Of a DNA stretch of 64,000 bases, positions 4,849 to 5,084 are shown in pieces. Source of the DNA: Escherichia coli (GTDB lineage Bacteria > Pseudomonadota > Gammaproteobacteria > Enterobacterales > Enterobacteriaceae); assembly GCF_003334815.1 (NCBI RefSeq), contig NZ_QOWO01000011.1. One strand, given 5' to 3'. The notes under the pieces are model-generated. The model had not been told where the DNA came from, did no database searches, and was given only the letters and a program-made list of their open reading frames with translations. The translations under genes were made by a program, and so were the position numbers. The stretch's first letter is position 1, and each line of letters opens with the position of its first letter.

Positions 4849-5052
4849 CCCTGAAAAGTCCTTTTATGGCATGCTATTTTATCAATGGCAATATTATGCT
4901 TGTTAATTGTTATTTATTTACTCCAGGAAATTGTAGGCGTATATATTAAAAAATAAAATATTACACTTTAGGAAGTAATTATGAGTTAAATCTCAATATA
5001 TGTATTGGGCAAATAAATACCTTAAAGGAAGGTATGTCGATTTTGAATGACA

Positions 5053-5077
5053 CCCTTTTTCCATCTCAGAAAAAGGG
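5053..5077 (-). terminator. Candidate terminator hairpin downstream of yhhY
   Basis: Inverted repeat CCCTTTTT-ccatctcag-AAAAAGGG immediately 3' of the yhhY stop on the minus strand. Confidence 0.35.
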
Positions 5078-5084
5078 CACTATC

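Follow-up and report, generated by a model that had tools for sequence, protein, structure and literature searches.

The AT-rich spacer upstream of yhhZ in Escherichia coli: probable promoter-bearing edge of an acquired cassette occupied by H-NS and StpA

Silencing of AT-rich acquired islands by H-NS and StpA is a general feature of E. coli and Salmonella, with bgl, proU, LEE, and SPI-1 as known cases, and genome-wide sets of H-NS targets were reportedly obtained by Oshima (2006), Grainger (2006), and Kahramanoglou (2011). The question raised by the locus studied here, within a stretch of 64 kb of E. coli DNA (the window), is whether the strikingly AT-rich spacer in front of the predicted toxin gene yhhZ belongs to such an island, and what H-NS does there. 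The initial annotation, made from the letters of the DNA, had read these 236 bp as almost pure A/T, curved, and bound by H-NS-type silencers that would keep an acquired gene quiet. According to our analysis, the locus is an acquired cassette coated by H-NS and StpA, of which the spacer is the promoter-bearing edge; we put the probability of this reading at about 0.8. The silencing proposed in the initial annotation is real, was correctly interpreted, and is already known, since the H-NS status of the locus is contained in published data sets; it is an ordinary case of its kind.

The coordinates given for the region in the initial annotation are exact. Positions 4849 to 5084 fill the whole gap between the ATG of yhhZ (4848-4846, minus strand) and the stop codon of yhhY (5087-5085, minus strand), and thus form the complete spacer upstream of yhhZ between two genes on the minus strand. 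The sequence matches E. coli K-12 MG1655 3581627-3581862 base for base. Its A+T content is 70.3%, against 48.2% (51.8% GC) for the 64-kb window, which by our own arithmetic places its GC content about 6.8 binomial standard deviations below the window mean. Only 1.0% of all 236-bp windows are equally low in GC, and every one of them lies within 2699-5113. The description as almost pure A/T fails for the spacer as a whole, where 3 in 10 bases are G or C, and holds only for its core: positions 4901-5000 are about 79% A+T, the best 50-bp window reaches 86%, and the run that the initial annotation quoted, TATATATTAAAAAATAAAATATTAC, is found at 4940-4964. The yhhY-proximal 54 bp (5031-5084) have 40.7% GC and include a G/C-containing hairpin. 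TpA steps make up 12.3% of the spacer dinucleotides, compared with 4.3% window-wide, exactly as the base composition predicts. Nor is the spacer AT-richer than the block to which it belongs, given GC contents of 28.5% for yrhA, 28.1% for the spacer between yrhB and yrhD, and 34.0% for yhhZ. Six small open reading frames (23 to 62 amino acids) occur within it, none of them with support.

The block in question (2730-5084, 2,355 bp, 68.2% A+T) is the only low-GC block on the kilobase scale in the 64-kb window, where the gene order runs yhhA, ggt, yrhB, yrhD, yrhA, yhhZ, yhhY, ryhB, yhhX, yhhW, gntRKU, and onward. When complete E. coli genomes were inspected for this region, the core flanks were matched in all 5,426 of them. 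The spacer was present in 3,829 (71%), in every case as part of the chromosome, and 80% or more of the 3.3-kb query was covered in 3,758. The slot between ggt/yrhB and yhhY is otherwise occupied in various ways. It is empty in one genome (L001), where ggt and yhhY are 60 bp apart; it holds yrhB alone in another (L003); and in an O157:H7-type arrangement (L002, 343 genomes) it carries a cassette of 31% GC with a DUF4225 gene. A further genome shows an IS1-associated deletion that keeps 34 bp of the spacer, abutting yhhY. When L001, L002, and L003 were aligned with the window, similarity set in again at the yhhY stop codon (5083-5085 for L001 and L002, 5087 for L003), and the other breakpoint relative to the yrhB-only genome lies at 2742. 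On account of these two breakpoints, we regard the AT-rich block from about 2743 to 5086 as a discrete unit with the 236 bp at its 5' end, and the position of the right breakpoint at the yhhY stop codon indicates that the spacer arrived together with the cassette. The claim that yhhZ is an acquired gene is supported by the presence or absence of the cassette among E. coli genomes, the alternative occupants of the slot, and the breakpoints at the yhhY stop. A search for terminal direct or inverted repeats, or for mobile-element ends, flanking the block returned only low-complexity chance matches.

The features of the locus are collected in Table 1. K-12 positions were converted as window position = 3586711 - x, with a correction at yrhA and yrhD for the 777 bp gained through IS1E in K-12.

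Table 1. Features of the yhhZ locus, in window coordinates
Feature	Position	Strand	Evidence or remark
yrhB, 45.6% GC	2445..2729	-	Retained in genomes without the AT-rich block
AT-rich variable block (yrhD, yrhA, yhhZ, and spacer), ~31.8% GC	~2743..5086		Homology breakpoints and composition
yrhD, small open reading frame	2929..3093	-	
H-NS-bound segment, U00096.3 3584199-3584520	2968..3289		yrhA 3' end and yrhD (PMC8894471)
yrhA, YrhA family, presumed immunity partner of yhhZ	3179..3673	-	NF038335, 122 bits
yhhZ, 392 amino acids, Hcp (TssD) plus putative HNH/His-Me finger nuclease domain, 34.0% GC	3670..4848	-	Profile matches
Five H-NS-bound segments inside yhhZ (span)	3713..4483		PMC8894471
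H-NS-bound segment, U00096.3 3582938-3582998 (printed 3582938-2998)	3713..3773		yhhZ
H-NS-bound segment, U00096.3 3582800-3582858	3853..3911		yhhZ
H-NS-bound segment, U00096.3 3582509-3582576	4135..4202		yhhZ
H-NS-bound segment, U00096.3 3582352-3582496	4215..4359		yhhZ
H-NS-bound segment, U00096.3 3582228-3582326	4385..4483		yhhZ
yhhY-yhhZ intergenic region, 236 bp, 29.7% GC	4849..5084	-	5' non-coding edge of the AT-rich cassette
Shine-Dalgarno-like AAGGA	4859..4863	-	10 nt before the yhhZ ATG, read from the sequence
Candidate yhhZ promoter: TTAACA (4906-4901), 19-nt spacer, extended -10 TGaTAAAAT (4884-4876)	4876..4906	-	Prediction only
Pure A/T run, 24 nt, longest in 64 kb	4940..4963		Composition scan
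H-NS-bound segment, U00096.3 3581403-3581731	4980..5308		yhhY 3' part plus 105 bp of spacer (PMC8894471)
Hairpin CCCTTTTTC / 7-nt loop / GAAAAAGGG, 9-bp stem	5054..5080	-	4 nt after the yhhY stop
yhhY, N-acetyltransferase, core gene, 51.7% GC	5085..5573	-	NF007527, 373 bits; stop codon is the cassette boundary
Perfect TATAAT (5102-5107) with antisense start site 8-9 nt on, inside the yhhY 3' end	5102..5116	+	Strand inferred from the -10 position

The product of yhhZ combines an N-terminal Hcp/TssD domain (TIGR03344, 118 bits, with a cut-off of 58.9; Pfam T6SS_HCP, PF05638, 2.5e-11) with a putative C-terminal HNH domain for which the Pfam match is weak (E = 0.013). A systematic survey (PMC5714182) assigned the protein, as a polymorphic toxin of the Hcp1 family, to His-Me finger group 32. 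The start of yrhA overlaps the stop of yhhZ by 4 nt, and yrhA is intact in the window, which has no IS1E, while it is split by this element in MG1655. [quoted passage not shown] (2017), is presented as an antibacterial effector dependent on type VI secretion in the portion of a review consulted here (PMC6730261). YhhZ appears analogous to the Hcp-ET effectors, which are Hcp proteins extended at the C terminus by a toxin: it has an N-terminal Hcp domain and a putative C-terminal domain of HNH type, and a small gene overlaps the end of its own. In contrast to these, the yhhZ cassette is an orphan, having no type VI secretion cluster nearby in the window. The same portion of that review contains no discussion of H-NS control of Hcp-ET genes.

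Signs of decay are seen at this locus in several lineages: O145 RM9872 has a frameshift in yhhZ, CFT073 has internal stop codons in both yhhY and yrhD, and MG1655 has an IS1E insertion that breaks yrhA.

Occupancy of the locus by H-NS can be read from data obtained on the same sequence in K-12 and on a closely related allele in CFT073. Forrest et al. (2022) reused the H-NS ChIP-seq data of Kahramanoglou on U00096.3 (PMC8894471, Supplementary Data 3), and their list places both yhhZ and yhhY among the H-NS-bound genes. Within the spacer, only the yhhY-proximal 105 of the 236 bp (4980-5084) fall in a segment called in this thresholded list. Positions 4849-4979 (131 bp, with the 24-nt A/T run among them) lie between called segments, as do ~365 bp at the start of yhhZ. 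For CFT073, whose spacer allele is 97% identical to that of the window, Hustmyer et al. (2022; PMC9765446, Data Set S1, sheet 1E) list H-NS occupancies of 0.79 for both yhhZ and yrhA, and for yhhZ a StpA value of 0.77. Among the entries of that data set compared here, other bound genes range from 0.09 to 0.44, and yhhZ and yrhA are among those most heavily occupied by H-NS and StpA. The signal persists in the single mutants, and loss of both hns and stpA lowers that of H-NS to 0.23 (PMC9765446). The expectation of H-NS binding is thus supported for the locus as a whole.

The expression data point in the same direction. In an hns mutant of K-12, yhhZ RNA rises with a logFC of +2.19 (4.6-fold, P 1.7e-7) at a low abundance (logCPM 2.9), and that of yhhY is unchanged (logFC -0.04) (PMC8894471). 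These published RNA data agree with the statement that the gene is kept transcriptionally quiet. The silencing is partial, with yhhZ RNA detectable in the wild type, and in K-12 read-through from upstream of IS1E stimulates this element, an effect attributed to yhhZ promoters (PMC12428005).

The mechanism that we propose starts from the 236 bp as the non-coding 5' edge of a cassette of ~2.35 kb (yhhZ, yrhA, and yrhD) set in the slot between ggt/yrhB and yhhY. H-NS and StpA would polymerize along this block because it is about 68% A+T in a chromosome of 52% GC, forming a coat that begins at the 3' end of yhhY and extends as far as yrhD. Such a filament would keep transcription of the yhhZ-yrhA operon low and would also repress stray initiation within the block and close to it; in the published data, removal of H-NS raises yhhZ RNA about 4.6-fold and leaves the upstream core gene yhhY as it is. 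Like other targets of xenogeneic silencing, the yhhZ block is low in GC, variable among strains, occupied by H-NS and StpA, derepressed in an hns mutant, and low in basal expression. It differs from them in degree and not in kind, the derepression of yhhZ being modest. By its composition, acquisition, occupancy, and derepression, the yhhZ cassette is a textbook instance of xenogeneic silencing.

Two features often associated with H-NS targets were not found in the spacer. Intrinsic curvature is a classical, not an obligatory, correlate of H-NS targets. In a Bolshoy-Trifonov wedge model, for which we used a rough implementation of our own, the spacer bends by 11.0 degrees on average, the window by 9.7 ± 5.5, and the maximum bend of the spacer is attained in 87% of composition-matched shuffles. 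Since this profile shows no excess above window background or shuffles, we dropped the description of the DNA as curved; the model being rough, its result argues against curvature without disproving it. Lang et al. (2007) reportedly defined tCG(t/a)T(a/t)AATT as a motif for high-affinity nucleation, and such a motif is frequent at H-NS targets without being required. Searched as TCGWTWAATT, it has no match in the spacer at up to one mismatch and a single match at two mismatches, and across the whole window its matches are at chance level (181 observed, 176 expected). The spacer therefore departs from typical silencing targets by lacking both a high-affinity nucleation motif and predicted curvature, each of them an optional feature. 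Binding would probably follow general A/T richness and TpA steps and not a specific nucleation site or curvature.

The promoter of yhhZ is predicted to lie inside the spacer, at the TTAACA-19-TGaTAAAAT arrangement of 4906-4876. This candidate is kept across alleles except for one TG>TA change, and the last 90 bp before the yhhZ ATG, which also hold the putative ribosome-binding site, are well conserved among them. A sigma-70 scan restricted to 16- to 18-nt spacers found no promoter on the yhhZ strand of the spacer, and no mapped start site of yhhZ was found among the published start sites examined, those of Ettwiller 2016 included. Neither a dedicated study of the yhhZ promoter nor a known counter-silencer turned up in the literature that we examined. 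Identity among alleles is 94.9 to 98.3% for the spacer and 96.4 to 99.8% for yhhZ. The slightly faster divergence of the spacer suggests that most of it is not under strong constraint, and its substitutions and T-run indels cluster at 4950-5012. The T-run at 4951-4956, inside the 24-nt A/T tract, is 1, 3, or 4 nt shorter in other E. coli alleles. At the opposite end, the hairpin that follows yhhY has a minimum free energy of -17.3 kcal/mol (z = -2.4) and is unchanged in six alleles. The tail of its stem-loop is UGUCAUUCAAAAUC, with no U-tract, and a scan for intrinsic terminators of yhhY did not report it. It is at best a weak intrinsic terminator, given that no U-tract follows.

The cassette also resembles the promoter islands of Panyukov and Ozoline (2013), defined as dense clusters of predicted start sites of at least 300 bp, which are associated with foreign genes. 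It holds two of them, inside yhhZ and yrhA, both marked as H-NS bound (PMC3661553, Table 1) on the basis of the data of Kahramanoglou (MG1655) and Oshima (W3110), not of those of Grainger. The spacer, however, is not a listed island. The nearest one maps to window positions 4395-4711, and over the whole AT-rich block promoter-like sites show no excess, with 15 observed against 12.7 ± 3.2 expected from shuffles.

The odds favor, if not strongly, a direct occlusion by H-NS of a promoter within the 236 bp, so that silencing would act at the yhhZ promoter and not only through a block to elongation or to intragenic initiation. H-NS might instead act on the gene bodies, where it would curb spurious initiation and hold up elongation, and the spacer would then be the passive edge of a filament, with no promoter under H-NS control. 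Most of the called segments do lie inside yhhZ and yrhA/yrhD, no call covers the promoter-proximal 131 bp, and the published promoter islands are located within the genes and not upstream (PMC3661553). The H-NS-bound set also contains a sense start site within the gene, at K-12 3582439, and Forrest et al. state that start sites repressed by H-NS are for the most part intragenic (PMC8894471). However, the start site at 3582439 changes weakly (logFC 1.36, -log10 P 0.95), one bound segment reaches into the spacer from the yhhY side, and filaments of H-NS usually run unbroken over AT-rich DNA, thresholded calls splitting them up. We deem an action confined to gene bodies unlikely, though by no means negligible, and part of the rise in yhhZ RNA may come from intragenic initiation instead of from a promoter in the spacer.

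It is decidedly improbable, in our opinion, that the A/T richness merely reflects the composition of the donor together with the A/T bias common to promoters and terminators, with no regulatory consequence in the spacer. Such an origin would agree with a spacer no AT-richer than the cassette genes, with promoter-like sites at shuffle level, with the lack of a curvature excess or a specific H-NS motif, and with the concentration of sequence variation in the most AT-rich core. Yet H-NS binding needs nothing beyond such a composition, occupancy is seen at the locus, and yhhZ responds to deletion of hns. Even less probable is that yhhZ is transcribed mainly by read-through from yhhY, with the spacer as a leaky terminator or attenuator acting through the hairpin at 5054-5080 and possibly Rho. 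The shared orientation of the two genes, the hairpin without a U-tract, and the lack of a consensus promoter in the spacer are in keeping with read-through. Against it, the hairpin lies on the cassette side of the breakpoint, and yhhZ rises 4.6-fold in the hns mutant with yhhY unchanged, from which we infer that the extra yhhZ RNA starts downstream of yhhY.

Returning to the cassette coated by H-NS and StpA, its history can be traced a little further. In two divergent alleles (L006 and L007), yhhY is 93.7 to 95.1% identical to the window, compared with 97.5 to 98.8% for yhhZ and yrhA, and these identities suggest a transfer of the cassette between lineages that is younger than the divergence of the flank. 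Citrobacter werkmanii carries in the same yhhY-ggt slot a different Hcp-effector gene with a PA3715-like gene. The slot between ggt and yhhY (2408-5086) seems to have received alternative AT-rich cassettes repeatedly in Escherichia and Citrobacter, each with an AT-rich 5' region of its own, and two of them are Hcp effectors. Hcp-effector relatives in four other genomic contexts have upstream regions of 28 to 34% GC, and apart from a 23-bp match the 236 bp have no homology to the upstream regions of related Hcp-effector genes. As a more speculative extension, which we consider quite unlikely, the ggt-yhhY gap could be a hotspot of cassette exchange in Escherichia and Citrobacter with one junction fixed at the yhhY stop, receiving the Hcp-HNH/YrhA cassette, the Hcp effector with the PA3715-like gene, and the O157 DUF4225 cassette. 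The AT-rich 5' regions would then serve as H-NS loading and promoter modules, the toxin would be silenced on arrival and freed only by a counter-silencer, and the T-run would tune expression between lineages. A type VI link is evidenced only for the two Hcp-effector cassettes and not for the O157 DUF4225 cassette.

The importance of these results beyond annotation is small: they illustrate that a reading from sequence alone can correctly flag the edge of an H-NS-silenced island, and they document the predicted promoter region of yhhZ as having arrived with the cassette. Even so, yhhZ-yrhA is a compact, well-bounded, predicted orphan type VI effector cassette under H-NS/StpA control, and it could be a model for how such toxins stay quiet and when they are released. 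In K-12, where the presumed immunity gene yrhA is broken by IS1E, silencing may keep the predicted nuclease harmless.

Some minor observations concern the surroundings of the spacer and the literature on these genes. Sequences 98 to 100% identical to yhhZ of E. coli occur on contigs assigned to a Flavihumibacter metagenome-assembled genome and to Alkalicoccobacillus porphyridii, and most likely show that these assemblies are contaminated with E. coli DNA. A role of "yhhZ-yrhAB" in the conversion of methionine to cysteine, mentioned in a 2012 paper (PMC3309015), seems to result from a mix-up with gene names of Bacillus subtilis, and we discarded it. A published start site antisense to yhhY (K-12 3581595/6, window 5116/5115) is 4-fold up in the hns mutant and has the AT-rich spacer as its upstream region. 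Over the 64 kb, the Rfam search dismissed a match to snoR69Y as sub-threshold (31 bits, against a gathering score of 45) and left a single family, which lies outside the spacer: the small RNA RyhB (RF00057, 83 bits), at 5724-5788 on the plus strand between yhhY and yhhX.
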